This document shows, piece after piece, positions 4,301-56,819 of a stretch of DNA of 64,000 nucleotides. Origin of the DNA: Podarcis gaigeae (taxonomy: Eukaryota); assembly GCA_964106915.2 (NCBI GenBank), contig OZ066922.1. The stretch is one strand, 5' to 3'. The position numbers and the translations under genes are program-made. Each line of letters starts with the position of its first letter. Position 1 is the first letter of the stretch. Under the pieces are notes generated by a model. The model was not told the origin of the DNA. It was given only the letters and a program-made list of their open reading frames with translations, and searched no databases.

Positions 4301-4325
4301 ATTATTTTTTAAGGATACTGTTCTT

Positions 4326-4786
4326 TGTTGTTGTTTAGTCGTTTAGTCGTGTCCGACTCTTTGTGACCCCATGGACCAAAGCATGCCAGGCACTCCTGTC
4401 TTCCACTGCCTCCCACAGTTTGGTCAAACTCATGAGGGTGGCTTTGAGAACAATGTCCAACCATCTCGTCCTCTGTCGTCCCCTTCTCCTTATGCCCTCA
4501 ATCTTTCGCAACATCAGGGTCTTTTCCAGGGAGTCTTCTCTTCTCATGAGGTGGCCAAAGTATTAGAGCCTCAGCTTCAGGATCTGTCCTTCCAGTGAGC
4601 ACTCAGGGCTGATTTCCTTCAGAATGGAGAGGTTTGATCTTCTTGCAGTCCATGGGACTCTCAAGAGTCTCCTCCAGCACCATAATTCAAAAGCATCAAT
4701 TCTTCGACGATCAGCCTTCTTTATGGTCCAGCTCTCACTTCCATAGATCACTACTGGGAAAACCATAGCTTTAACTATACGGGCCT
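4326..4786 (-). mobile_element. Bov-B (RTE clade) LINE, 5'-truncated 3' end
   Basis: Minus-strand ORFs encode the RTE ORF C-terminus (KAMVFPVVIYGSESWTIKK...DAFELWCWRRLLRVPW...SLEKTLML.KIEG.RRRGRQR.RWLD). There is an in-frame stop near 4563 and a (CAA)n tail. Confidence 0.95.
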
Positions 4787-6232
4787 TAGACTGCAGCAAT
4801 CAGCATCAGCCCAGAAGCGACACTGGGGAGAGCTGTGCTCTGCAACTCTGTTCTTCGGCTTTAAGTCCAGCAGTAGCACTGAAAGGATTGTGCCCAATAG
4901 GACTAAAAGATTACATCTAGTAAGTGGTCCAAACTTGAAACATAACTAAACAGTGAAGATATTTTTTACATCCTGAAACTACTGAAAAACCCTCCAACAA
5001 GCTTAAAATAAGCCTTGCACTTCATATTTCTAAGTCATTGGCAGGAATAGTAATCTTACGCAGCTTAATGTACACTATTCAATATGAGTAATAAACATAT
5101 TGATCATTATACTTCTCTTAGCTGATGAGGCAACTTTGGTGGATGAAACCACAATGCCATATGGTTTCAATGTGCTTAATATAGTTCTCCAAATAACCAC
5201 CATAAATTCTAATTAAAAATTATACAGGGCATTTAATAGAGAATTCCAGCATATTCGTCTAAACTGCCATTACAATAATATTACTGCAGGTGAAATGCTG
5301 TTTAAAAGGGGGACAAAGAAGTATTTAAATGCTTACCAGCTAACTACAGTTTATAGGATTTGGAGTGACACTAATTTTAACCTTTATGTCTCACAATATA
5401 AAGCATGATTAATGAATGCTTTTCATTAATTGGAAATGACACCAAAATAAAATGAATCGTTTCTCTAACTGTGTTCAAATTAAACTAAAGCAGTGCAGTT
5501 TTTGTGTTGTGTGAGATCCAGCATCTTATTAGAATTTTAAATGGAAACATTCTTTTGACAACGAAAGCCCAGTTTTGGCAAAGGATGAGGTAATGGATGC
5601 TTATAACTTAAATTTAGAGGAATCTTAATCCCAAACTGCTGTTTGCCAAGGTAATGCTATATGCATTCATTTCCCAATGTTTATTTGTCAACAAGTTAAA
5701 TGATCCTGGTGACTCAGTCTTCAGAATGTATTGGCACTAAAACTAGTTTCTAAAAGAACACAAAATTATCTACTAAATACAAATAGTAATAAGTTAGTAG
5801 GTTAGAACAGATATACCTGATGTGGCAGAAAACTCAAGGTTTCTTTTAGAATCTGATGGGAATAAGTCAAGACACCAGCCAGACTTTCTGTAACCAATAG
5901 TTCAGCTCCTGGCTAAAATGACTCTACCTGTCTTTGTTCCAAGGTAAGATAATTGCTTAAAAGACATTAAAAAAGGATTTTTTTGTCCTCCTGGAAATCC
6001 AAGTGATCAGTAAAGGTTACTTTGCAATAAGAAGTTTCTATTCTACCTTTGGCCAAAATTCCAGTCCTCTTTCTTAATCATGAATTGAGCTTTGGACAGG
6101 CTGTCAACCTGGCATGTCTTTGAAATTCCATTTAATTCATATTGCCACTATCATTATCATTCACATATTTACACTGGCTGCCACAACCACATCTAGTGGC
6201 TTGATTGGCTCTTTGGGTGATTCTTGGCCATA

Positions 6233-9150: not shown

Positions 9151-11136
9151 TACATATGAGTGGAACCCAGTCTTCTCCTGCTTGTCCGCATTTGCATATA
9201 TCTTTAACAGAAATACAGCATTTTTGCACAAATGCAAGCTTCGTACATGAAAAGTTGGGTCTAAGTGCTTTGTTTGTATTCACCTATGTGCAAAAATATG
9301 AAAAAGAGAAACCTGTTTCTCACATATTAACCCTCAAAAAGTGCAAAAATAAACAATAAAATACAATTAAAAATAAATATGAATATTTAATGCATACATG
9401 CCACTCACCACCTGAATGAAGCTCATGGACCACTGGTGGTACCCAAAACACAGTTTGTGAACCATTGCTCTTTGTGAAGGGATGTCTCATCTAAAGATAA
9501 AGATCTATATGGAGGAAGGGCCTTGAAGAAGAAGGGCGATGAATTTCCCATCAAATTTTCATAGTTGGACAGCAGGCTAAACAAGCACAGCTGGAGCGGG
9601 AAGGAGTGTTACCTGGTGACAATATATCCCAATATGGCCAGTTATATATATTATATTGTAATTTGTATCTCTACATATATTATTAGCATATGCAAACTTT
9701 ATGCAAATATGTGTCTGTATTTATTTTCTTTTTGAGCAATATATATCTTCTTTTCTGACGATAAGTGGCCACTCAAGTTTTCTAACATGAGCATACCCCA
9801 TGCTTAAATCTCTTCCACTTTCGCTTGCCTCAAATAAATAAAGTGATTGTGCAGGTTGGCAAACTCTACCTGCCTATAAGTTGAGGCAGATGTAGATTCA
9901 GCTGCTAAACTGTAGGATGATGTAAAGAAATATATGCTGTTCAATACTCCTTTTTAAATGGTTGAGTTTCTGCTGAGTCTAAGTATTCTTTGAACATATC
10001 AATAATTCAAAAGTTATTCTTAGAAAAGTCTGATTTTCATCTCTGTGCAAAGACTGCTTGTAGACTGCAGTGCTACTATTCAAGGCTTGTTACTGATAAA
10101 ATTAGAGAGAGAAAATGTCATAGCAAAAGATAGAGAGTGAAAAAGACAGAGCAAACAAAGTGTGCAAAGAAAGTTGGAAGTAATACTGGAGGAGTTTATT
10201 GGTAAGTGGCATTTGAGATTTCCCCCTGTTTATTTTTTCCGGGGGAAATTAAGTGTGTGTGTGTGTGTGAGCTACAATGCTATTTCCTAGGCAATTTTGA
10301 ATGTGAATATGCTTACACACAAATAAGCAATAACTAGTTTTGTTTGACTGGAGGAGACATGGTTGGCATTCCTGATCACTGCAGGAACTCATAGATTACA
10401 TCGGTGATGAAATTTGTGAACCCCACACTGAGCATTACAGCAGAAGCAGGGAATTAGATATGGAAGGCATTTTGCTTATGAGGTTCTTGCAAAACAATAC
10501 GAATCAGCCCTGAAAATTAGCAATATCAGAATTTTCTGCTGGATATTAAGAGTTGACTGTTAAGGACTTTTATTCCTCACTAGCTACACATAAGCAGTCT
10601 CATGCCTAGCATCTCTGAGAGCTAAGAAATTAAAGATCCTATTAACCCTTGAAGGAGGATTACTCTGAAACTGATGGAAACTTTGTACGCTAAAGCATTT
10701 TTGCAAAAAGGTATGGCGGTCTAGATCTGTGGTGGGAAGCCTCCATGTCCATGAACCAGATGCAACCCTCAGTCCCATCCACCTGACAGTGTCAGAAGTG
10801 GATTGGGTAGGTTTCCCCCCTTGTTTGCTTTTTGACAAGGACTTCCTTTGTGGTAGTGGCACAACTGCAGCAGAGGCTAGCTGGGAGCAGCTTCCCTCTT
10901 GCTTACTCCATCTGCAAAAATCTGGCTAGTCTCCTACTCTTGTATCCATAATTCCAGTGTTAGCTACAGTGATGAAGATGGAGGGAGCTGAGAAGAGGCA
11001 AGGCAATCAGCCAGACCCAGGACAGGAGGAGGAGCTGGTTGAGGTAGAGGTTAGCCAAGGATCTTCCTCTTATCCTTTCCCATCACTAACTCTGTGCTTT
11101 TGCCTTTCAGGATGAAGAGGAGGAGGGTTTTTTCCC

Positions 11137-11763
11137 ATCCATATCTTTCTGGTATAATTACTCTGTATATTCTTGCCACCTCTTCTTGATGTCTTCTGCT
11201 TCTGTTAGGTCCTAACCACTTTTGTCCTCTATTATGGTAATCTTTGTACGAAATGTTCCTTTCACATCTCCAATTTTCTTGAACAGATCTCTGGTTCTTC
11301 CCATTCTGTTGTTTTCCTCTATTTCTTTGCATTGCTCGTTTAAGAAGGCCTTCTTGTTTCTCCTTGCTATTTTTTGGAAATCTGCATTCAATTTCCTGTG
11401 TCTTTCACTATCTCCCTTACATTTTGCTTGCCTTCTCTTCCCTGCTATTTGTAAGGCCTCATTGGACAGCCACTTTGCTTTCTTGCATTTCCTTTTCATT
11501 GGGATGGTTTATGTTGCTGCCTCCTGTATAATGTTGTGAGCCTCCATCCATAGTTCTTCAGGCACTCTGTCCACCAAATCTAAATCCTTAAACCTGTTCC
11601 TCACTTCCACTGTGTATTCATAAGGGATTTGATTTAGAGTGTATCTTACCGGCCCAGTGGTTTTTCCTACTTTCTTCAGTTTAAGCTTGAGTTTTGCTAT
11701 AAGAAGCTGATGATCTGAGCCACAGTCAGCTTCAGGTCTTGTTTTTGCTGACTGTATAGAGCC
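11137..11763 (-). mobile_element. Bov-B LINE internal fragment (between endonuclease and RT domains), truncated at both ends
   Basis: ORF 11212-11499(-) KKAKWLSNEALQIA...KAFLNEQCKEIEENNRMGRTRDLFKKI is the characteristic Bov-B ORF segment. No 3' tail is present. Confidence 0.92.
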
Positions 11764-13018
11764 CCCATCTCTGCCCCCATCTACTTTCCAACATCTCTCT
11801 CAATTTCTCAGGTCAGAAAAAGAGGAGAGATTGCAGCAAGAGAAGAAGAGTGGCTTTGCCCATGATCTGCTCTGCTCAGTGTTGGCTCCTACCCTTGGTT
11901 TACAATCCCCATGGATAAACAAACCTTCATGGGGTGTGGGAAGCTGTCTGGTGCTAGTCTAGAAAGCCAGGCTTACAACTTCAAGAACTGAAGTTCATGA
12001 GCCCCATTTACATTATGAAATCTTTTTGTGGCCTTAGGGAAGTAATCATGTCAGGCCTCTGTTTTCATCGGTGCAACATGAATTATACTAGCCTGCCTCT
12101 ATAGGTTAGTTAAGGTGAACAAACATGAGAAGTTGAAATGACCAGTAGTCAAATTTAACATTTTGGCAAGACCGATTCAAGGCAGCCTGCTATCCATTAC
12201 CTTATTCCTGGAAAAAGAAAAGTGGCCGAGCCATTTGTTTAATGTTACCCATGTTTCAGCAATGGTTCCAAATGGTGAGTGTGTGTGAGATATGTAGTCA
12301 TTTCAACCTTCTTTTAGTAAGTTCCTCCCCACCCCTTCTGCACTTTTCTTTACCTCTGCCCCATCTCCCATTGCTCTCATATTTCCCCACAGCTTTACCT
12401 TATGTGGAAACCTCGTCCATGTTCATATGAATATGGAAACCTTCCAAAATAGCAGTGCTGAGATGTACTTGGATTACTCCCTAGAGCACCTGAAATGCCA
12501 GGAAAGAAAATCAGATATATTTGGCATCAGATCTGAAACACAAGGTCATTATATGGACTATTAAATTTTGATAATATAGGATAATAAAGATGTTGGTGGA
12601 ACTAGATCAGAGATCACATGTTTTAGAGAACTTATAAGATGTATTTCAGGTGACTTCATTCAGGCTGAAATAATAACCAGAGCTATTGTATGAAGGGCTG
12701 CTGAAGCACATATTTGGGACCAAAAAAAAGTGGATTCAGACCTGAAAAGAGGAACATGACTGTAATCATTCCACCTTCTTTTGTTATATCCAGACCCCTG
12801 CCATTAGCTGAGCATTCACATCAAAGCACCCTTACAAATATCCTTTTTTATTTTCACGGAACCCAACAGCTGCACAGTAATAAAGGTTTTCTTTGCATTG
12901 TACAGTCCCTCTCAAGGCCCTTGTAAACCTTGGTGCTGTTGGAGCTCTCCCGGGATTATTCTTGATCTAGACTGTGGGGTGGGTGCAGGAAATTGAAAGT
13001 ATGAATACTGTTTCATAT

Positions 13019-14367: not shown

Positions 14368-14732
14368 GGGATGCAGGTGGCGCTGTGGGTTAAAACCTCA
14401 GCGCCTAGGACTTGCCAATCGAAAGGTCGGCGGTTCGAATTCCTGCGGCGGGGTGCGCTCCCGCTGCTCGGTCCCAGCGCCTGCCAACCTAGCAGTTCGA
14501 AAGCACCTCCGGGTGCAAGTAGATAAATAGGGACCACTTACCAGCGGGAAGGTAAACGGTGTTTCCGTGTGCAGCTCTGGCTCGCCAGAGCAGCGATGTC
14601 ACACTGGCCACGTGACCCGGAAGGGTCTCCGGACAGCGCTGGCCCCTGGCCTCTTGAGTGAGATGGGCGCACAACCCCAGAGTCTGTCAAGACTGGCCCG
14701 TACGGGCAGGGGTACCTTTACCTTTACCTTTT
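14368..14732 (+). mobile_element. Full-length young Sauria SINE
   Basis: GGG start, A-box GGTGGCGCTGTGG, B-box GGTTCGAATTC (14432-14442) and (ACCTTT)n tail. Exact 10-bp TSD TACCAACATA at 14358-14367 and 14733-14742. Confidence 0.95.
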
Positions 14733-15611
14733 TACCAACATAAAAAATCTTCTGTTTTGTTCATCACAAATATTCATATATATGTATGAACATTAAGAGT
14801 TTATATGATGGTGGGAGGGGGTTCTTTCTTTCTTTTATTTATATTTTGACTTCTCACATACATAGCAGAGAGTTTTGCACCCATGGGAAACACACTCTGA
14901 GTTCAACTGAGTAGGGCAGGTGTTGCATATACTGGGATGCTGCATTTAACACTGTGATCCTGATTCTGAAAAGGTTGATGAGGTAATGAAATTCTGAATA
15001 TTAGCGAAACATAATGTATGTATTTTTAAAAGATAAGCCATTGAACAATAGAAGCAGATTCCTGGAAAATGTTGCAGATTACCTATCTCTGGAGATATCT
15101 TCTTAAAAAAGAATAAATGTGCATCTGTTAGGAATGGTGTAGCTACACTATCACCACCAAGGGATTGAACTAGAGGACCTTCAGCAATGTTTCCAAGTTT
15201 ATGATCCTGCATTTTTTCCCTTTATGAAGGAAGCCTGATTTCACCTTTTTGGGGATCCTTCCCATTTCTTCTCATGGACACTGTTTGTTTCTCTCCTGAA
15301 TGCTCAAAGTCCATATATCTTAAATGGTAGAGAATTAAGGTGGTATTTAAGGGGGGAATCTACCCTAATTCTTTAGCCATATATGATTTATAGATTATAG
15401 ATGGATATTTAGAAAATCTGTAAAAGAAAGACAACGTCTCACAGAAACAGGCATAATCCTTTGTTATGAAAATCAAAAAGAGTATTTTCCTCTTAATATT
15501 ATTTTCTTCAGATGGCAGATCATAATTGCTATACTAGGTGTGTCAGTATGCAAAAGTTTTCCCATATTGCATACATACAGTTCCATTGATAATATTCCAA
15601 ATTGATATATA

Positions 15612-17850: not shown

Positions 17851-17896
<46 letters not shown>
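17851..17896. repeat. (TAA)n microsatellite
   Basis: About 15 TAA units directly abutting the Bov-B tail. Confidence 0.95.
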
Positions 17897-17897
<1 letters not shown>

Positions 17898-18405
17898 TTG
17901 TTTAGTCGTTTAGTCATGTCCGACTCTTCGTGACCCCATGGACCAGAGCACGCCAGGCACTCCTGTCTTCCACTGCCTCCCACCATTTGGTCAAAATCAT
18001 GCTGGTAGCTTCGAGAACACTCTCCAACCATCTCGCCTCTGTCGTCCCCTTCTCCTTGTGCCCTCAATCTTTCCCAACATCAGGGTCTTTTCCAGTGAGT
18101 CTTCTCTTCTCATGAGGCAGCAAAGGATTGGAGCTTCAGCTTCACGGTCTGTCCTTCCAGTGAGCACTCAGGGTTGACTTCCTTCAGAATGGAGAGGCTT
18201 GATCTTCTGGCAGTCCATGGGACTCTCAAGAGTCTCCTCCAGCACCATAATTCAAACGCATCAATTCTTCTGTGATCAGCCTTCTTTATGGTCCAGCTCT
18301 CACTTCCATACATCACTACTGGGAAAACCATAGCTTTAACTATACGGACCTTTGTTGGCAAGGTGATGTCTCTGCTTTTTAAGATGCTGTCTAGGTTTGT
18401 CATTG
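17897..18405 (-). mobile_element. Bov-B LINE, 5'-truncated 3' end
   Basis: ORF 18110-18403(-) MTNLDSILKSRDITLPTKVRIVKAMVFPVVMYGSESWTIKK...; frameshifted downstream; same 3' UTR as the 4326 copy. Confidence 0.95.
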
Positions 18406-18485: not shown

Positions 18486-19093
18486 GCCAAAGGATCTGAC
18501 TGCCTCTCATTGGACCATCTTAATAAGTCCTCAAAGAAGGCACCAATAGCTCTTCCAATTACTTGCTCCATTCTTCAGGCACTGAGCACTGATGTGTGAC
18601 ATCAACAAGGAGCTCTGAAAATCCTTCCCATTTAATGTTTTTGTGTTTAATTGCATTGAGCTGTATGTAGCCTGTTCTGGGACTGCATGGTGAATGGTGG
18701 GCTATAAATGCCTATGAATGAACATATTAATAAATTGTGAATGGTTTCTGAATGAGAACTTAGGATTGCTTTGCAGAAAAATGGGCTGAATCACCAAGTC
18801 ATGAACCCCATTTACAAAGTCAGAATCAATCTTTCACCATCTCTTAAGCGAGGGTGGGGAGGAGAGATTTGGCTTCCTCCTGCAAGGCAAATACATGCAG
18901 ATATTTAGAATGGGCGATTTTAGAGCATTTCAGTCATACTGGTAACATTGTCCTTCAGCAGAACAGAGCAATGGTTTTCCCATTGTGTTCTTTATTATAA
19001 TGTGCATCCATTGTACTTGGCATGTAGATGGCTGCATCCTTTGAATAAATATAGGGAGAGCTAGCAAGAATATATGACATTTTGAATTGGTTA

Positions 19094-19100
19094 ATATATA

Positions 19101-19131
<31 letters not shown>
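19094..19131. repeat. (TA)n microsatellite, left flank of the Penelope-like insertion
   Basis: Directly visible, with one TGTG interruption. Confidence 0.95.
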
Positions 19132-19208
19132 GCTTTCGTAGATTTTCACGGGTACAGGAATGCAGGTTTTGGTGTCCTCGGGTGTCTTCCCGTGTAAAAG
19201 TTGGGGTG

Positions 19209-19256
19209 TCTAGGCGACGTTTCGACGAGGTCTCACTCGTCATCTTCAGGCTGGTG
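19209..19256 (-). ncRNA. Minimal type I hammerhead ribozyme motif (left arm)
   Basis: Reverse complement of the motif at 20221-20268; core at 19216-19249. Confidence 0.7.
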
Positions 19257-19818
19257 CTTTCGGCTTCTTGTTACTGGAACAGAGCGGGATCTCAATGTTT
19301 GAGTTCCTATAAATACTGTAGAGGGGGTGTGGTGTCTAGCCTCCAATGTTCTGGGCAGAGAGGAAGTTCCCAGGCTAGTGTGCCTTTTCTTCTTTTGTTC
19401 CTTAATTACTTGAGAGATACCTTGAGTGATTTCTTGAGTGATATCCTGAGTACCACTTAGGTGGGTCATTAGGTGTGGATTAGTTGCTAAAGTCTTTGTG
19501 TCTTGACCTCTTGAACTTTGTGAAGAGTTTTCCTGAGAAGATGGCTGTATTGCACTTAGTTGTGCTTTGGCTTGGCTTCGTGTATAGGGGCGAGCTGTGG
19601 TTTTGTGGCTTGTGTCAGCCAGATCTGTGTAGGGATTGCAGGGGGGTGCAGCATCCGGAGGTGCCACCATGGATTGGCTACTGGATGGTGTCAGTAATTC
19701 ATCTGTGGAGAGGGTCTGGGTTTGGGTCTGGTGTGGTTGATTGGTGTTGGCGTTCTGTGTGCCTCTGGATCTGGTGTCAGTTTTTGTGGGGAGGGCTAAT
19801 TTCCAGATGTCTGGCAAG
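19233..19818 (-). pseudogene. C-terminal fragment of the Penelope-like ORF (GIY-YIG end plus long S/T/Q/P-rich tail)
   Basis: Open frame from LPDIWKLAL to ...PEDDE* with no native start. The ATG at 19841 comes from the opposite arm. Confidence 0.6.
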
Positions 19819-20220
19819 CCGGATGCTGCACCCCCCTGCAATCCCTACACAGATCTGGCTGACACAAGCCACAAAACCACAGCTCGCCCCTATACACGAA
19901 GCCAAGCCAAAGCACAACTAAGTGCAATACAGCCATCTTCTCAGGAAAACTCTTCACAAAGTTCAAGAGGTCAAGACACAAAGACTTTAGCAACTAATCC
20001 ACACCTAATGACCCACCTAAGTGGTACTCAGGATATCACTCAAGAAATCACTCAAGGTATCTCTCAAGTAATTAAGGAACAAAAGAAGAAAAGGCACACT
20101 AGCCTGGGAACTTCCTCTCTGCCCAGAACATTGGAGGCTAGACACCACACCCCCTCTACAGTATTTATAGGAACTCAAACATTGAGATCCCGCTCTGTTC
20201 CAGTAACAAGAAGCCGAAAG

Positions 20221-20268
20221 CACCAGCCTGAAGATGACGAGTGAGACCTCGTCGAAACGTCGCCTAGA
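20221..20268 (+). ncRNA. Minimal type I hammerhead ribozyme motif (right arm)
   Basis: CTGAAGA (20228-20234), an extra T, helix II GACGAG/CTCGTC with loop TGAGAC, GAAAC, then a GTC cleavage triplet (20259-20261). Helix III is reduced to palindromic ACGT. Helix I is weak, with only 2 contiguous GC pairs. Confidence 0.7.
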
Positions 20269-20312
20269 CACCCCAACTTTTACACGGGAAGACACCCGAG
20301 GACACCAAAACC

Positions 20313-20315
<3 letters not shown>

Positions 20316-20355
<40 letters not shown>
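20316..20355. repeat. (TA)n microsatellite, right flank of the Penelope-like insertion
   Basis: About 20 AT units. Confidence 0.95.
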
Positions 20356-25978: not shown

Positions 25979-28653
25979 ATTATTATTTTTTTAACCATTG
26001 AAATATTATTCCATTTTGTGGATATACCTTTTTTCTCCTTCAGTGGCGTCAGCAACATTGTCAATACATTATTGCATGCATGTTAATTTGGTTTAATAAT
26101 TTTGTGTGGGTTTCCTTTTTAAAAAAATATATTCCATCTCAGCTCAAACGTCCTTTCATTGCCTACATTTTCTTTTTAGCAGCTCATCTGACACTGAATG
26201 TCTGACCCCTGCTACCATAATAGCTGCTAATGGAAATTTCACCTCATGCAAAGATAAGATGGATTTTTGGCAGCTGTGGGAGATTATGAAGAGTAAGAAC
26301 AATCTTAGCTGGAATCACAAGAAAAAGAAGACATCTGTAGCTTGAGAGCTACTCATCTGGTTTTTATTATGCACCAAGCCTATATTTATTACAAGGAAGC
26401 TAGCCAAGAAACTGAAACCGATAGGCCTCTGCTCTTGGAGTGAGGAGACCAATATCAGACTGATAAATTCTGCCTTTTAGAGTCATGTGCGTACAAGCAC
26501 ATTATCTTGTAGATGCATGTCATGATGAGATCCATTTGATATAACTTCTTTAAAGATGGCATTTTCCCAGTTTGCTACTCTTCAAAGCCAGCCCAAGACA
26601 TCTTGCTGACTGAGGTGGAAGACAAAATGGCACCCTCCTTTTCCATGTACAGAAGCTATCTGGACTAACAGTTGAAGCTTCCTCTAGTACTGATAACTGG
26701 ATAGTGTCATCCACAGTATCAGGCTAGGTATGGGGGTGCAGAACCAGCCATAGGGCACACACAGTTCTGTCATTCAGCAAAAGGGTACAGCCAAGGGGTT
26801 CAGGAGGAACAGCCTCACACTGCCTAATTGTAGGACTGGCTGAGCTGGTCCTTGTTCTCATGGTACTGGATCTAAGTCAATGTTTTGTTGTTTTCAAATT
26901 AGCTTGTGTGCACATACAGTTATTCAGCCTTCCCTTTCATTGTGTTTTCATGTTCAGTTTTGGCCTTGTATATTCTCACTTCTGCCCCAGCTCACAGTCA
27001 TGCTTTATTGTGCATCCATCAACCTTGCTGTCTCACTATCCCTTGTTTCTTTGCTTTACATCTTATTTTGGTGGCCTGCTCCTATTTCCACCCAAACTTG
27101 ATGGGCACCTATGACTCACATGGCCACATTTGTGATACAATGATTAAATTGTAGCGATTGTTGAATACCTACAAGGGAAGGATGCATAGGTTGCACAAAT
27201 CTTAATTCATATATCCAAGACTGCCTTTTTGATTTAGCTTCCCAGTGTGAAGATAAATGCATGAGTGGTTGCAAATGGAAAAAGCAGAGATTTGGGACTA
27301 GAGTTGACTGTTGAAGTTCCTTAGATACATGTTTACCAGGAAGGATGATCATATTGCTCTCTTCAGATATTTATCTCTCCCCCCCCCCTTGCCATTTCTA
27401 AAAAAGCACTTGAGATACCAATGCTTTCATGCACTTTTAGGAATCTATAGTTAAGTGTATAATTCCTTCCCAGACTGCTCACAGTGTATTTGTTCTGTAA
27501 AATGTGTTAGCTTGTTGGATGTTAGCTACAAAAGCTCACCACCACCACCTCTATCATACCCCCTCATCCTAATTTGAGACAAAAAAGCACCAACTTCAGT
27601 GTTCCTCTTCAAATATAATTTCCTCATTTTGTGGCTTAGCTGAAAGTCTTCATAAATAAATGCCTGTCCATCAGTATGGTGAGTTTGGTCTATGAGGATG
27701 TTCAGACAGCTGGCTCATCAAAGCACTCAGGCAAGAGAATAAAGGAGAAATTCCTCCTCATCTAAGTTCAATTATTCCAGAGAAGGTGGACTAAAAATGA
27801 CACTTGGCCATGGTAGTCTGATTTGCAGGAAATCTCTTACAGACATCAAAGTTCTGTGCCTCAAACAGGACTTGGTTTTGCTCTTCTTACATCCTGATGA
27901 ATAGTGCCTGGAATTTAAAGGGAGTACTTTTGTTCTGCTTTCTTTGAAAGTAGTCAGAGTATTTTTAGAAGACCAGATAAAAGCTTTACTTGAGAATTTA
28001 CCGAATTAGGGGTTGCTGGACCAGATGCAAATCAAACAACAACAACAACTTGTAGGCAAAAGCATTAAAACAACAGTTCCTTGCTAAAATGGCTAAATAT
28101 ATTCCTCCCTAACATTAAAGACTGCTATGTTTGTGCGCAGCTAAGGTTTCCCATAAACCAGTAAACACACAGACTAAACAGTTATATGCATTCCTCCAAT
28201 GACTGTGGCCTTATCTTCTTCAGAGGAATTAACTAGATTGATTTAAATATAACCAATATATGTTAAACTGGGCTTTATAAAAACTTGATTTGCCATTAAT
28301 AAATGAATGACTGATCTTTGTGTGGTCAAGACTCCACAATCAGCTCACATTTCACAACAGAGACGTTCTGCATGCAGAACACCTGCTACACACATGGTCA
28401 GTCAATTGGATGCTGCAGCAGGTATGAAAAGAGACGATCCAGAGATCAACTCTCTGCAATCATCAACTGAGACTGCTGTACCAGTCAGGAAGCCAAGGGA
28501 AATCAGTATAGAATGGGATGCATATCTCTGTTTTTGCCTGCTATTTGAATGGTTGATTGCCTTTGAATTCCAAGCACCTATCTGTCTACTAAATATTACT
28601 ATACATTGTACTAGTAGGGCAAAATACATTTTTGTTGTTTACATTGTTGTTGT

Positions 28654-29062
28654 TTAGTCGTTTAGTCGTGTCCGACTCTTCGTGACCCCATGGACCAGAG
28701 CACGCCAGGCACTTCTGTCTTCCACTGCCTCTCACAGTTTGGTCAAACTCATGCTGGTAACTTCGAGAACACTGTCCAACCATCTCGTCCTCTGTCGTCC
28801 CCTTCTCCTTGTGCCCTCCATCTTTCCCAACACCAGGGTCTTTTCCAGGGAGTCTTCTCTTCTAATGAGGTGGCCAGAGTATTGGAGCCTCAGCTCCAGG
28901 ATCTGTCCTTCCAGTCAGCACTCAGGGCTGATTTCCTTAAGAATGGATAGGTTTGATCTTCTTGCAGTCCATGGGACTCTCAAGAGTCTCCTCCAGCACC
29001 ATAATTCAAAAGCATCAATTCCTCGGCAATCAGCCTTCTTTATGGTCCAGCTCTCACTTCTA
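28654..29062 (-). mobile_element. Bov-B LINE, 5'-truncated 3' end, with probable TSD
   Basis: Encodes SESWTIKKAD..IDAFELWCWRRLLRVPW. Flanked by TACATTGTTGTTGT (28640-28653) and TACATTGCTGTTGT (29063-29076), a 13/14 match. Confidence 0.95.
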
Positions 29063-29848
29063 TACATTGCTGTTGTAATCCAAAAGGGGGAACACACCTA
29101 GGTTCTGGTGGCAATTGAAGGAACTATGTATTTGGTGCCATTTAGACTCATGTGTGTGTGTGCGCGCGTCACTAAATCCACTCCAAACCAAAATAGACAA
29201 AAATCCCTCTGGGTAGTGCTAGGTCCTGAATCACCATACAACCATCTCTTGCCACCCTAATTCTTCCAACTTACCTAAATGAGTTTTCAGGGCAGCAGGA
29301 ATGGGAAAGCAAGGTTGATTTACACTAAATATTAACTCTGACTTTTAAACCTGCTTCTGACACTGCAACTCTCATCTGCAACCTTCTGGTGAAGGGTGAA
29401 TAATAATTACACAAACACAAGTTCTCTTCCTTAATTAAAATTATCTTATTACCAATTAACCAAGCTGCATATTGAAAGAAACATAAGAAGCAATATGTGA
29501 GGCAGGGCCAAATGGAGCTAAAATCAACATTTCCCCCCCAATTTGTTTATTCATTTCCAGACGTTCTTCATTTACTATCTTTGGAAACCAGAACACAATC
29601 TTAATGTTTTTTTCCCTCCCATCATTTTCTCAGTTGTTGGCAATGGTGTGTTGCCCCTTCCAAAGCCTGATAATTGACACTGTCTCTTGAATAATTTCAG
29701 AGCTTCCTTCACCATTAGCAGAATTACCTCTAGGCAACACACATTCCATACTTGTAAATCAATACTGTTCTTTCCTTTATTTGTTCTGCTGTGGGAGCAT
29801 CTAAATCATAATTAAAGCTGGACATATTCAGTTTTATGACATGTACTT

Positions 29849-34643: not shown

Positions 34644-34699
34644 GAAAGAGCCCATGGAAAGGGGCTTCAGATGATGAACACAGTGTCCAGCAGTGGCAG

Positions 34700-35067
34700 G
34701 TAAAGTAAAAGGACCGCTGGATGGTTAAGTCCAGCCAAAGGCAACTATGGGCTCATCTTGCTTTTCAGGCTGGGGGAGCCAGCGTTTGTCCACAGAGAGC
34801 CTTCTGGGTCATGTGGCCAGTATGACTAAACCACTTCTGGTGCAACAGAACACTGTAATGGAAGCCAGAGCACACAAAAATTCCGTTTAACTTCCTGCCA
34901 CAGCAGTACCTATTTATTTACTTGCACTGGTGTGCTTTCGAATATCTAGGTTGGCAGAAGCTGGGACAGAATGATTGGGGCTCACCCCATTGAACTGCCA
35001 ACTTTCTGATCAGCAAGCCCAAGAGGCCCAGTGGTTTAGACGACAGCACCACTAGCATCCACCACGT
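34700..35067 (-). mobile_element. Sauria SINE, older copy
   Basis: CpG-decayed Sauria body. 12-bp TSD CAGCAGTGGCAG at 34688-34699 and 35068-35079. Confidence 0.88.
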
Positions 35068-42400: not shown

Positions 42401-43249
42401 AACTACAAAAATAAATACAGAATAGAACAGCATTGTAGTGGCCAAGCCTGAGGCCTAGTCATCTGTCTTATAGCATGCTCTGGTAAGAGTGTTTGGCTTG
42501 GACTTTTTCCATCACATGTGGTAGCTGTGAGAGTCGAAAGGTGGGAGGGAGGGAGGAGGCAGGAGAGAACAATGTTAAGACAGTGCATTTTAAAGTGTGT
42601 TGCCTTTACAACCCTCAGGAAACACAATTCTCACAGGAGCCATAGCGCAGAAACTTCTTTTGTTGTACCTCTGCGTGTGCAAATGTATAGATCAGTTTGT
42701 GACATTCCCCCCTCCTCTTCCTCCCCGGTTCTGAAAGATTATGATGAACTGGTACGCATACTTGCACACTGTAACATGTGGTTATAGCTAGGCCAGGATT
42801 TGTGATGAGTTGTGTGTGCACAGTCTTCCTGGTAATTTTAACATTCTTGACTTATGGGGCTCTTTTCAGTGGAAAAGCTCAAAACCAGAGAATGTGGAAT
42901 GAGGGGTAGCTGGATGTTTGTTAGTTTTGGCTGAAACATATTCCCCTTCTCTTTCCTTCTGTGGACAGTATAGAACAAATTGAAGTGATATAGGGCCCTC
43001 TTTTCCTTTCTTTATATGTTTCTAATAAAAAAAGATCTCTCCCCAATCCCCTCTTATTTATATAATGCATGTGATTTCCCTCCTCCACAACACAGATAAT
43101 GTATGTGGAAAAAATATACCATAGTCATCAGCTGGCTGCCATGGTGAGAAAGCCCACCATTTTGCGCTGATGAATTTTCTTCTATTAGAGATTGCGTGGA
43201 GCAGCAGAAAAGTAATTTTTTTCAACACAGCAAAAAATATTTCTGCTAT

Positions 43250-43567
43250 AAAGGTAAAGGGTAAAGGGACCCCTGACCATTAGGTCCAGTTGTGGCCAAC
43301 TCTGGGGTTGCGGTGCTCATCTCGCTTTATTGGCCAAGGGAGCCGGCGTACAGCTTCCGGGTTATGTGGCCAGCATGACTAAGCTGCTTCTGGCGAACCA
43401 GAGCAGCACATGGAAACGCTGTTTACCTTCCTGCCAGAGCGGTACCTATTTATCTACTTGCACTTTGATGAGCAGGGACCAAGCAATGGGAGCTCACCCC
43501 ATCGCGGGGATTCGAACCGCCAACCTTCTGATCAGCAAGTCCTAGGCTCTGTGGTTTAACCGACAGC
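43250..43567 (-). mobile_element. Sauria SINE with internal deletion
   Basis: (AAAGGT)n reverse tail, reverse B-box GGATTCGAACC and a Sauria body. Confidence 0.9.
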
Positions 43568-43589
43568 TACATAATAACGAATATACATT

Positions 43590-46458: not shown

Positions 46459-46831
46459 TATCGTTTATGAGGGTCAATATTTGTTAATTTAGCCCAGTGA
46501 ACAACTGGAACTCCTGGCCCATACTCACATGAGCTTAAAGTTACCCATATGGAGGAGATTCATTGTACATGGGCAATTATTCAGTGGTATCTCTTAGGCT
46601 TTGTCTTTTTTAAAAAAAATTATGAAAATTCACCAGCATTTTAGAGCAAATTTCTTCTAATAAACATATTTTATACGTGGTTTTTATCAATGTACACATT
46701 TTTGCAAGAATTTTTCCCAAATTCAATCTTTTTTCCATGTTATATTTGATAATAGCTTCATTTTTATACACACATTTCTGTAATATATGCATTTCTGTAA
46801 ACATTGCCTGGAGAACATCATTGCAACATTT

Positions 46832-47195
46832 AAAGGTAAAGGTAAAGGTACCCCTGCCTGTATGGGCCAGTCTTGCCAGACTCTGGGGTTGTGCGCCCAT
46901 CTCACTCAAGAGGCCAGGGGCCAGCGCTGTCCGAAGACACTTCCGGGTCACGTGGCCAGCGTGACATCACTGCTCTGGCGAGCCAGAGCTGCACACGGAA
47001 ACGCCGTTTACCTTCCCGCTAGAAAGCGGTCCCTATTTATCTACTTGCACCCGAGGGTGCTTTCGAACTGCTAGGTTGGCAGGCACTGGGACCGAGCAAC
47101 GGGAGCGCACCCCGCTGCGGGGATTCGAACTGCCGACCTTTCGATCGGCAAGCCCTAGGCGCTGAGGCTTTTACCCACAGCGCCACCCGCGTCCC
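46832..47195 (-). mobile_element. Full-length young Sauria SINE nested in the old AGGGATG-family repeat (~46600-47320)
   Basis: Same subfamily as the 14368 copy. Exact 12-bp TSD ATTGCAACATTT at 46820-46831 and 47196-47207. Confidence 0.95.
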
Positions 47196-54112: not shown

Positions 54113-54910
54113 TGCAAACCTTCCACACTGCTCTGTGTTCTTCATGATTGAGGCATACATTTTGGCTGAAAGGCAGATTAGAAACTATTAAATGACTAAA
54201 TAGAATTTTCATCAAGGTACTCAGGAAATAATGGAGGATGCAGAAGAAAATGGCACCTGCCAAAGGAGCTTTTCTGTATTTTTAACCTCTTTTCTTCTCT
54301 ACCTAGGCCAACGCAGAGTGGCTGGCAGTGAGTCACGGTTGGGAGAGAGTGGATGAAAGAATAAGGGAGCACTGAGAGTGTGTAAAATAATAATATGAAC
54401 ATTTCTACAATAAATTGCATTTAATTTATGGCTCTGGAGCATTAAAATTTATAGCTATATACTCAAGCCATACTACCTTTTCAAAACTCCAGTTTAATAT
54501 GTATCAAAGGTGTCCATTTTACTGCTCTAGTGCCTTATGTTTTTATATTTCCAGGTGCAGCTTGATTTGAAATCTCTCCCCCGCCCCCTTCAATTTTCAC
54601 TTTAATATTTAGGGACCAGTCCAAATGTTAGATGTATACTCCAGCATGTGAACCATGCTGCAAATTATTTGTGTGTTTTTGATGCTCTGAACCGTAAAGG
54701 GTACCACCTTAACCGGTGTTGCTGACTGTGGATGGAATTGCCAAAAATTGGGTTGATGTGCACACTACTAACTGAAGCTAATGTTTCTGCCTAATTTGTC
54801 ACAATTGCCCAATCCCATGCAGCTCGGGCTTCCTGGAGATATTTTCTATGGGCACTGGGAGCGGAAGTAGAACCTCTGTTGCATGAGCAGCCTTCTACTC
54901 ATGGCATTTT

Positions 54911-55250
54911 AAAGGTAAAGGGACCCCTGACCATTAGGTCCAGTCACGGACAACTCTGGGGTTGCGGTGCTCATTTCACTTTACTGGCCAAGGGAGCCGG
55001 CATACAGCTTCTGGGTCATGTGGCCAGCATGACAAAGCCGCTTCTGGCCATCCAGAGCAGCGCAGGGAAACGCCGTTTACCTTCCCACTGGAGCAGTACC
55101 TATTTCCTTGCACTTTGACGTGCTTTTGAACTGCTAGGTTGGCAGGAGCAGGGACTGAGCAACAGGAACTCACCCTGTCACAGGGATTCAAACCACCGAC
55201 CTTTTATTAGCAAGCCCAAGGCTCTGTGGTTTAGACCACAGCGCCACCCC
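54911..55250 (-). mobile_element. Sauria SINE
   Basis: AAAGGTAAAGGG reverse tail through to 'tagaccacagcgccacc' reverse head. Confidence 0.9.
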
Positions 55251-56614: not shown

Positions 56615-56819
56615 NNNNNNNNNNNNNNNNNNNNNNNNNNNNNNNNNNNNNNNNNNNNNNNNNNNNNNNNNNNNNNNNNNNNNNNNNNNNNNNNNNNNNN
56701 NNNNNNNNNNNNNNNNNNNNNNNNNNNNNNNNNNNNNNNNNNNNNNNNNNNNNNNNNNNNNNNNNNNNNNNNNNNNNNNNNNNNNNNNNNNNNNNNNNNN
56801 NNNNNNNNNNNNNNNNNNN
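56615..56819. other. Assembly gap
   Basis: Run of about 205 N. Confidence 0.99.

Follow-up and report, generated by a model that had tools for sequence, protein, structure and literature searches.

Structure of the locus

Positions 19132-20317 of the window, by which we mean the whole 64-kb stretch of DNA that was analysed, hold two 5'-truncated 3' ends of one element, about 694 and 499 nt long, placed head to head. No further copy of the element occurs elsewhere in the 64-kb window. An inverted-repeat search and an exact string test show that the arms, at 19160-19658 and 19819-20317, are 100% complementary and are separated by 160 nt. The arms differ at 0 of 499 nt, which bounds their divergence at 0.6%. 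Exact string comparison thus bears out the perfect 499-bp inverted repeat with a 160-bp spacer described in the original prediction. The extent proposed there, 19160 to 20317, holds for the arms, but the insertion itself starts at 19132, with a 28-nt tail found at the left only.

From left to right, the structure begins at an (AT)n target tract (19094-19131) with one GTG interruption. The 28-nt tail of the left copy follows on the minus strand (19132-19159); counted from the ATG of the hammerhead core (position 20234 in arm 2), its far end lies at +112. Arm 1 (19160-19658, minus strand) is the 3' portion of the long copy, 499 nt that run to a tail-less end point at +84. The spacer (19659-19818, minus strand) is the upstream part of the long copy and not host DNA: the open reading frame continues through it, its depth is that of the element, and loose contig ends at 19819 and 19825 continue into element sequence. 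Its predicted length of 160 bp is correct, then, while what fills it is the element itself. Arm 2 (19819-20317, plus strand) is an inverted, 5'-truncated copy without a tail that ends at +84. Its first seven nucleotides, 19819-19825, form the inversion junction, a 7-nt overlap of the 5' ends of both copies in which 6 of 7 letters match the family sequence. A second (AT)n target tract (20318-20355) sets the right boundary of the insertion.

Each arm includes a 12-nt tandem repeat of about four copies that encodes a TQEI-like peptide (19405-19451, mirrored at 20026-20072). In this repeat, the family majority letters in organisms B and C depart from those in organism A at 19415 or 19420. The remaining inverted pairs between 14000 and 26000 (the 25 longest of 77) are (AT)n tracts, arms in shifted register, or AT-rich matches of at most 76-79%; those in shifted register derive from the 12-nt repeat internal to the arms. 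A candidate TATA-like 8-mer lies at 19308-19315 on the plus strand, pointing inward and antisense to the element, with its mirror at 20162-20169 on the minus strand.

The outer ends both fall in 38-nt (AT)n tracts, and the sequences beyond the tracts differ. Because both ends lie within (AT)n, a target-site duplication is unreadable. At position 19160 the element meets (TA)n in 25, 6, 9 and 19 contigs from sequencing runs X1, X3, X4 and X5, respectively; since this joint recurs in many copies and in all four of these runs, the tail-less end is a natural, family-wide end. The boundary of the tail contains ATT. The anatomy therefore comprises an inverted 5'-truncated copy, a tail at one side only, and an AT-rich target. 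In the typical arrangement described for Penelope-like elements (PLEs), an inverted 5'-truncated copy lies beside the 5' end and only one end bears a tail (PMC8557442); head-to-head is described as their most frequent form (PMC3846280).

Repeats of other kinds are also present in the window. Three repeat 3' ends, 92-94% alike, occur at 4325-4787, 17896-18352 and 28644-29067; their frames read like those of an RTE/BovB-type LINE, to which we presume they belong, and a longer, presumably RTE-like fragment lies at about 11050-11960. Six SINE-like copies of about 350 bp, 65-93% alike, occur at 2054-2420, 14368-14737, 34698-35060, 43244-43568, 46827-47195 and 54910-55249, and are probably Sauria SINE. 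In the left flank of the insertion, 18677-18728 shows raised depth, with loose ends at 18677 in three runs, which marks it as a fragment of another repeat.

Identity of the element

The minus-strand reading frame at 19233-19817 (LPDIWK...PEDDE and a stop) represents the C-terminal 194 codons of an element protein, open across the spacer and arm 1. The other two frames of this region have 11 stops each, so the 194-codon extension may be real coding sequence. A search with the peptide matched two proteins among 626 candidates. P0001 is identical at 194 of 194 residues, and P0002 shows 79% identity across 73% of the query; the two proteins are 89% identical to each other over the 316 aa compared. 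P0002 contains an RVT_1 domain at 152-330 (E 4e-16) and a GIY-YIG domain at 499-538 (E 0.001), the latter at 19.8 bits, below the Pfam cut-off of 22.6. This relative accordingly has a single ORF with reverse transcriptase (RT) followed by a C-terminal GIY-YIG endonuclease (EN), of which the locus keeps only the C-terminal 194 codons.

The CCHH motif, defined by two Cys placed between GIY and YIG (PMC8557442), is matched by P0001 and P0002, both of which have the Cys pair at this place and, further downstream, an HxxxxxH pair. A pattern search of P0001 and P0002 found no CX2-5CxxC zinc finger between RT and EN, a feature of Neptune and Nematis. Judged by domains and motifs, the family is placed in the Penelope/Poseidon clade of EN+ PLEs. 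The peptide matches and the RT and GIY-YIG domains of P0002 uphold the Penelope-like identity first proposed for the locus, which is very probably a head-to-head PLE insertion.

Two further features of the reading frame can be recorded. In the family (P0001, P0002; 19233-19817 here), the ORF runs 194 codons past the endonuclease through the entire 3' repeat and is S/T/Q-rich. Its stop sits in helix/loop II of the hammerhead, a few bases past the ATG of the next unit and in a different frame. A non-LTR retrozyme, which would consist of non-coding units in head-to-tail tandem, each with a hammerhead, was considered for the locus and rejected, since the two copies face each other head to head and include the terminal part of a PLE ORF.

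Hammerhead motifs

Each arm bears one CTGAAGA...GAAAC core, and the two face outward, at 20228 on the plus strand and 19249 on the minus strand. In arm 2 the minimal hammerhead spans 20228-20261 (plus strand). The core CUGAAGA occupies 20228-20234 and is followed by a bulged U before helix II, a 6-bp stem of 20236-20241 with 20248-20253 (pairing probability 0.99). GAA at 20254-20256 precedes the palindrome ACGU at 20257-20260, which makes up helix III without a loop, and the hammerhead model predicts a cut after C 20261. The start codon of the ORF, at 20234-20236, lies inside the core. The mirror motif in arm 1 spans 19216-19249 (minus strand), with its ATG at 19243-19241.

The prediction of one outward hammerhead per arm is supported by the core letters, by helix II and by the fit to the published minimal PLE hammerhead. 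The minimal type likewise agrees with features described for metazoan PLE hammerheads by Cervera and de la Pena (2014, PMC4209133), with which the motif shares the CUGAnGA core, the bulged base before helix II, the G10.1-C11.1 pair, the palindromic 15.2-16.2 segment and the lack of a loop 3. Helix I has only 2 bp (pairing probability 0.02), short of 4-5 bp, and the 2-bp state is that of the family majority in run X1. The same source gives 4-5 bp for Schistosoma and 2 bp for D. virilis Penelope, and the hammerhead here would be classed, from its sequence, among the short-helix I variants, as is that of D. virilis Penelope.

Folding places the cleavage triplet in a decoy hairpin with probability 0.90, and in a two-copy cofold the palindromic helix III is not the minimum-energy state. 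An Rfam search of the whole window at E<=1 returned seven matches, all below gathering score and none of them a hammerhead, and a loose regular expression for the core also matches at 5122 and 25214 elsewhere in the window. What carries the assignment is thus the core sequence, together with helix II and agreement with the minimal hammerhead published for PLEs. In our reading the hammerheads are passengers, present on every 3' end of the family.

Inversion junction and assembly support

Family contigs match the window up to 19825 and then pass into the part of the element further upstream, which codes for NMNKRDD of P0001, while other family contigs reach arm 2 at 19819 from its usual upstream sequence. 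From these departures at 19819 and 19825, the two copies overlap by 7 nt. The overlap corresponds to an internal inverted repeat of the element, 19652-19658 versus 19819-19825. The window encodes Gly at codon 19818-19820, where both proteins, P0001 and P0002, have Arg. Over 19786-19825 one letter differs in an X3 contig of high depth, and up to 19819 the contigs of X2 and X4 show no difference. From the two proteins and the contig ends we infer another family letter at 19820, where the letter present in the window is that of arm 2. A perfect 7-nt microhomology had been entertained and was dropped, as P0001, P0002 and the contig ends give the other family letter at 19820 and leave a match of 6/7. 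At least six of seven complementary letters are found for 398 of 462,400 element position pairs (0.09%).

The inversion junction at this locus is known from the window's assembly alone. No junction-spanning contig appears among the 32 listed of 225 pieces from runs X1, X2, X3 and X4, a list that retains the longest pieces; the longest aligned junction piece is 42 nt, and a spanning contig would give about 53. Junctions of other copies, at depth 40-350, are retained in contigs. The insertion may be absent from the sequenced individuals, it may have been filtered from the contigs, or the assembly may be wrong. The best sequencing run contains 0.89 of sampled words, so this run may derive from an animal other than the one assembled.

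Assembly or polishing might in principle have created, from a very high-copy repeat, the inversion itself or else just the complete identity of the two arms. Besides the lack of a listed spanning contig in four of four runs and the word share of 0.89 in the best run, the arm equals the X1 family majority at all positions (no other letter reaching 10%), as polishing with collapsed reads would yield, and a 205-N run elsewhere in the window (56615-56819) is an assembly gap. Such structures are also reported to trouble short-read assemblies (PMC8557442). A fold-back read, however, would mirror the tail and the left flank, and here the right flank is unique; arm 2 terminates at a genuine family end, equivalent junctions are present at other copies, and the contigs are filtered, so that a missing junction proves nothing. 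An overlap of 7 nt is moreover too short for an assembly-graph mis-join. We regard an artefact as quite improbable, although polishing could have increased the apparent likeness of the arms.

Abundance and age of the family

In X1 the depths summed over the element amount to about 4,000-12,600 times the flank depth; in X3, single contigs reach 3,000 times. Copy number is roughly in the thousands, a depth ratio being no copy number. In X1, 2802 of 4282 family contigs are alike at 99% or more. Head-to-head junctions of other copies make up four of the 15 listed joints (20 in total): 19443>19823 and 19449>19828 in X1, and 19607>19831 and 19665>19831 in X5. At all four the antisense arm passes into the 42-nt sense stub. 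A loose end at 19820 in X2 is the head-to-head junction of yet another copy. Head-to-tail joints occur in other copies as well (X4 19800>19160; X5 19672>19160 and 19536>19164; X1 19539>19294), three of the four through short AT-rich linkers; such partial tandems fit what would be expected if copies insert beside earlier copies.

The left flank differs from X1, X3, X4 and X5 at 0, 1, 5 and 7 of 490 sites, respectively, and X5 has in addition a 5-nt insertion; flank divergence is 1.0% from organism B and 1.4% from organism C. The copy bears the organism A majority letter at 3 and 4 positions where the B and C majorities, respectively, differ. The insertion therefore likely postdates the split of these three lineages. 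These organism A-specific letters support the very young age originally proposed for the insertion, and gene conversion, the other explanation offered for the identity of the arms, is not needed.

Origin of the head-to-head arrangement

A comparable element is Poseidon_Ac (PAc) from Anolis carolinensis (Frangieh et al. 2024, PMC11167929). The PAc ORF begins at helix II. Reverse transcription sets in 111-118 nt downstream of the ORF start, and two RT start sites delimit the tail. At AT-rich DNA the PAc protein, for which a dimer is predicted, both cleaves and extends the two strands, most often cutting at ATT. The end of the tail at the present locus, ATG+112, agrees with the PAc start at +111-118.

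We favour a head-to-head PLE insertion formed by twin priming, a joint reading that is on balance probable. The GIY-YIG endonuclease of the element would cut both strands of a TA tract. One 3' end would prime reverse transcription at the tail start (ATG+112) and produce about 694 nt, while the second would prime at the tail-less start (ATG+84) and produce 499 nt. Both reverse transcriptions would stop early, the 3' ends of the cDNAs would anneal through the short overlap, and fill-in would then generate a perfect inverted repeat, with the extra 160 nt left as spacer. Any RNA made by polymerase read-through would form a long hairpin, possibly edited or diced as a by-product. Twin priming is favoured because both outer ends are RT start sites and because the mismatch in the overlap was resolved to arm 2's letter. 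For L1, twin priming is itself still a proposed model awaiting validation (PMC10760644), and a literature search for Penelope together with twin priming returned no relevant paper.

The main rival, self-priming by fold-back, would produce the same element in a single insertion: a cDNA, or an antisense RNA template, folds onto its complement 160 nt away and copies itself, and the endonuclease then trims the product at the tail boundary. The complete identity of the arms suits copying from one template at least as well as it suits two primings, and the overlap is precisely the element-internal inverted repeat 19652-19658 / 19819-19825. Arkhipova et al. read palindromic junctions as self-priming on an antisense template (PMC3846280), the tail has been attributed to endonuclease resolution of an intermediate (PMC8557442), and ATT, the commonest PAc cut motif, is present at the tail boundary. 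A strand folding back from 19825 would be expected to retain the family letter, however, and the window has arm 2's letter at 19820 in place of the primer-held one, so that a later repair would be required; a private variant of the source copy at 19820 would remove this argument. Arm 2 also stops exactly at the family-wide end, a position that in PAc is an RT start site. We consider fold-back unlikely.

If a second, separate insertion had landed at the 5' end of an earlier one, the identity of the arms would be owed to the youth of the family or to gene conversion. With so many X1 family contigs at least 99% alike, separate young copies could match fully. The junction nevertheless contains neither (TA)n nor host DNA, and shows instead the 6/7 overlap and an exact head-to-head abutment, and the same geometry recurs at other copies and across PLEs. 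An origin in two insertions is extremely improbable. Twin priming remains the reading we prefer; in two of the papers cited here (PMC8557442, PMC11167929), how PLEs generate head-to-head repeats is treated as an unsettled question.

Possible read-through transcripts

A read-through RNA is predicted to form a fold of about -1,098 kcal/mol in which each of the 34 hammerhead positions is paired, in agreement with the expectation of a hairpin of about 500 bp that encloses the whole hammerhead. For RNAs with their start in the spacer or at the TATA-like box that points inward (19308), the prediction is a hammerhead outside the long stem. The original prediction took such transcripts to stay cleavage-competent and saw in the locus a possible built-in switch, in which read-through hides the ribozyme and could yield siRNA against the family. 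The two folding results count in favour of such a switch, and so do siRNA peaks that coincide with the inverted repeats of Penelope in transgenic Drosophila (PMC3681739, PMC3136932).

Cleavage of single-arm transcripts is nonetheless unlikely. Each transcript has a single sense hammerhead, with its 2-bp helix I and its decoy hairpin, and homologues are inactive alone: for a single minimal hammerhead cleavage was undetectable, and dimers cleaved little (PMC4209133). The PAc hammerhead is reported to cleave only with the element protein and to be dispensable for insertion in vitro, and no RNA-seq ends occur at the cut site in Anolis (PMC11167929). Among Xenopus retrozyme dimers, 1/9 cleaved (bioRxiv 10.64898/2026.07.22.740005). 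A free motif being unlikely to cut alone, the ribozyme switch is not supported. As for siRNA against the family, siRNAs matching inverted Penelope regions are reported in transgenic Drosophila and are judged unable to silence efficiently (PMC3681739; PMC3136932). The copy, in addition, is young, lacks RT and is one among thousands, and the insertion mechanism by itself accounts for the geometry. A selected regulatory switch is therefore very improbable.

Much the same holds for a broader proposal, that head-to-head stumps, of which this lizard family has many, jointly act as a brake on the element. Read-through hairpins of about 500 bp would be edited or diced against the family, and the choice of start site would switch the locus, the inward TATA-like box giving a shorter hairpin with one hammerhead exposed for protein-assisted or trans cleavage. 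The proposal is very improbable. Mammalian cells, and perhaps those of vertebrates in general, tend to edit long hairpins more than they dice them. A literature search on Penelope, hammerhead, ADAR and editing found no paper, and the editing angle for Penelope hairpins may be unpublished.

None of the listed sequencing runs is an RNA run containing the locus; six runs guessed to be RNA have sampled-word shares of 0.17-0.18. A crude splice-site scan for a host exon nearby gave 16 candidates, none convincing, and a Pfam scan of 145 of the 767 stop-free frames of at least 40 aa between 3 and 40 kb gave no match above curated cut-off. The 145 frames were picked by composition, and this null result is compatible with a long intron or a non-coding transcript. 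The locus probably represents one young insertion and probably has no function in its own right.

Comparison with known systems

PLEs surveyed by Craig et al. (2021, PMC8557442) and Adineta Pen2a (PMC3846280) resemble the locus in having a head-to-head copy at the 5' end and a one-sided tail. From the same two sources, EN+ PLE insertions share with it the palindrome or overlap at the junction and a microsatellite target, and their tails measure 30-40 bp, against 28 nt here. Unlike those insertions, the locus consists of two short remnants that lack RT and most of the endonuclease, and no target-site duplication can be read, both ends being in (TA)n.

PAc is a different lizard family of element, and the likeness to it is drawn from its published description. 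Its start codon is in the hammerhead at helix II, as here, its cut falls 26 nt past the start codon, compared with a predicted cut at about 25 nt here, and it shares the AT-rich target and the C-terminal GIY-YIG (PMC11167929). In the present element the ORF stays open for 194 codons beyond the endonuclease and stops in the hammerhead. Dual hammerhead motifs on opposite strands are described at 100-700 bp apart (PMC4209133), as against about 980 bp at the locus. Rearranged Drosophila Penelope copies have, as here, a long inverted repeat able to form dsRNA (PMC3681739, PMC3136932). For Drosophila Penelope siRNA has been reported, whereas here the host is a vertebrate and the dsRNA is a prediction.

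Twin priming in L1 inverts adjacent, non-overlapping segments. Unlike L1 inversions, both copies here begin at the 3' end of the element and overlap, which results in an inverted repeat. What the L1 5' inversion shares with the mechanism proposed here is two primings per target and cDNAs joined by microhomology (PMC10760644).

The locus is an ordinary young Penelope/Poseidon insertion, and its shape, which likely arises by accident as an element integrates, is the usual PLE footprint. The literature already describes inverted copies placed head to head, a tail on one side only, hammerheads on opposite strands, and siRNA derived from inverted Penelope repeats. A single locus carries little weight, and the modest value of this one is mechanistic, bearing on how PLEs form head-to-head structures. 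The copy uses both known RT start points, one per end, and the mismatch in the junction overlap, scored across many copies, can separate twin priming from fold-back. Such a sample could come from this young family, which numbers thousands of copies across several closely related lizard species. If it is true that read-through hairpins restrain the family in a vertebrate, this would extend the observation made in Drosophila.
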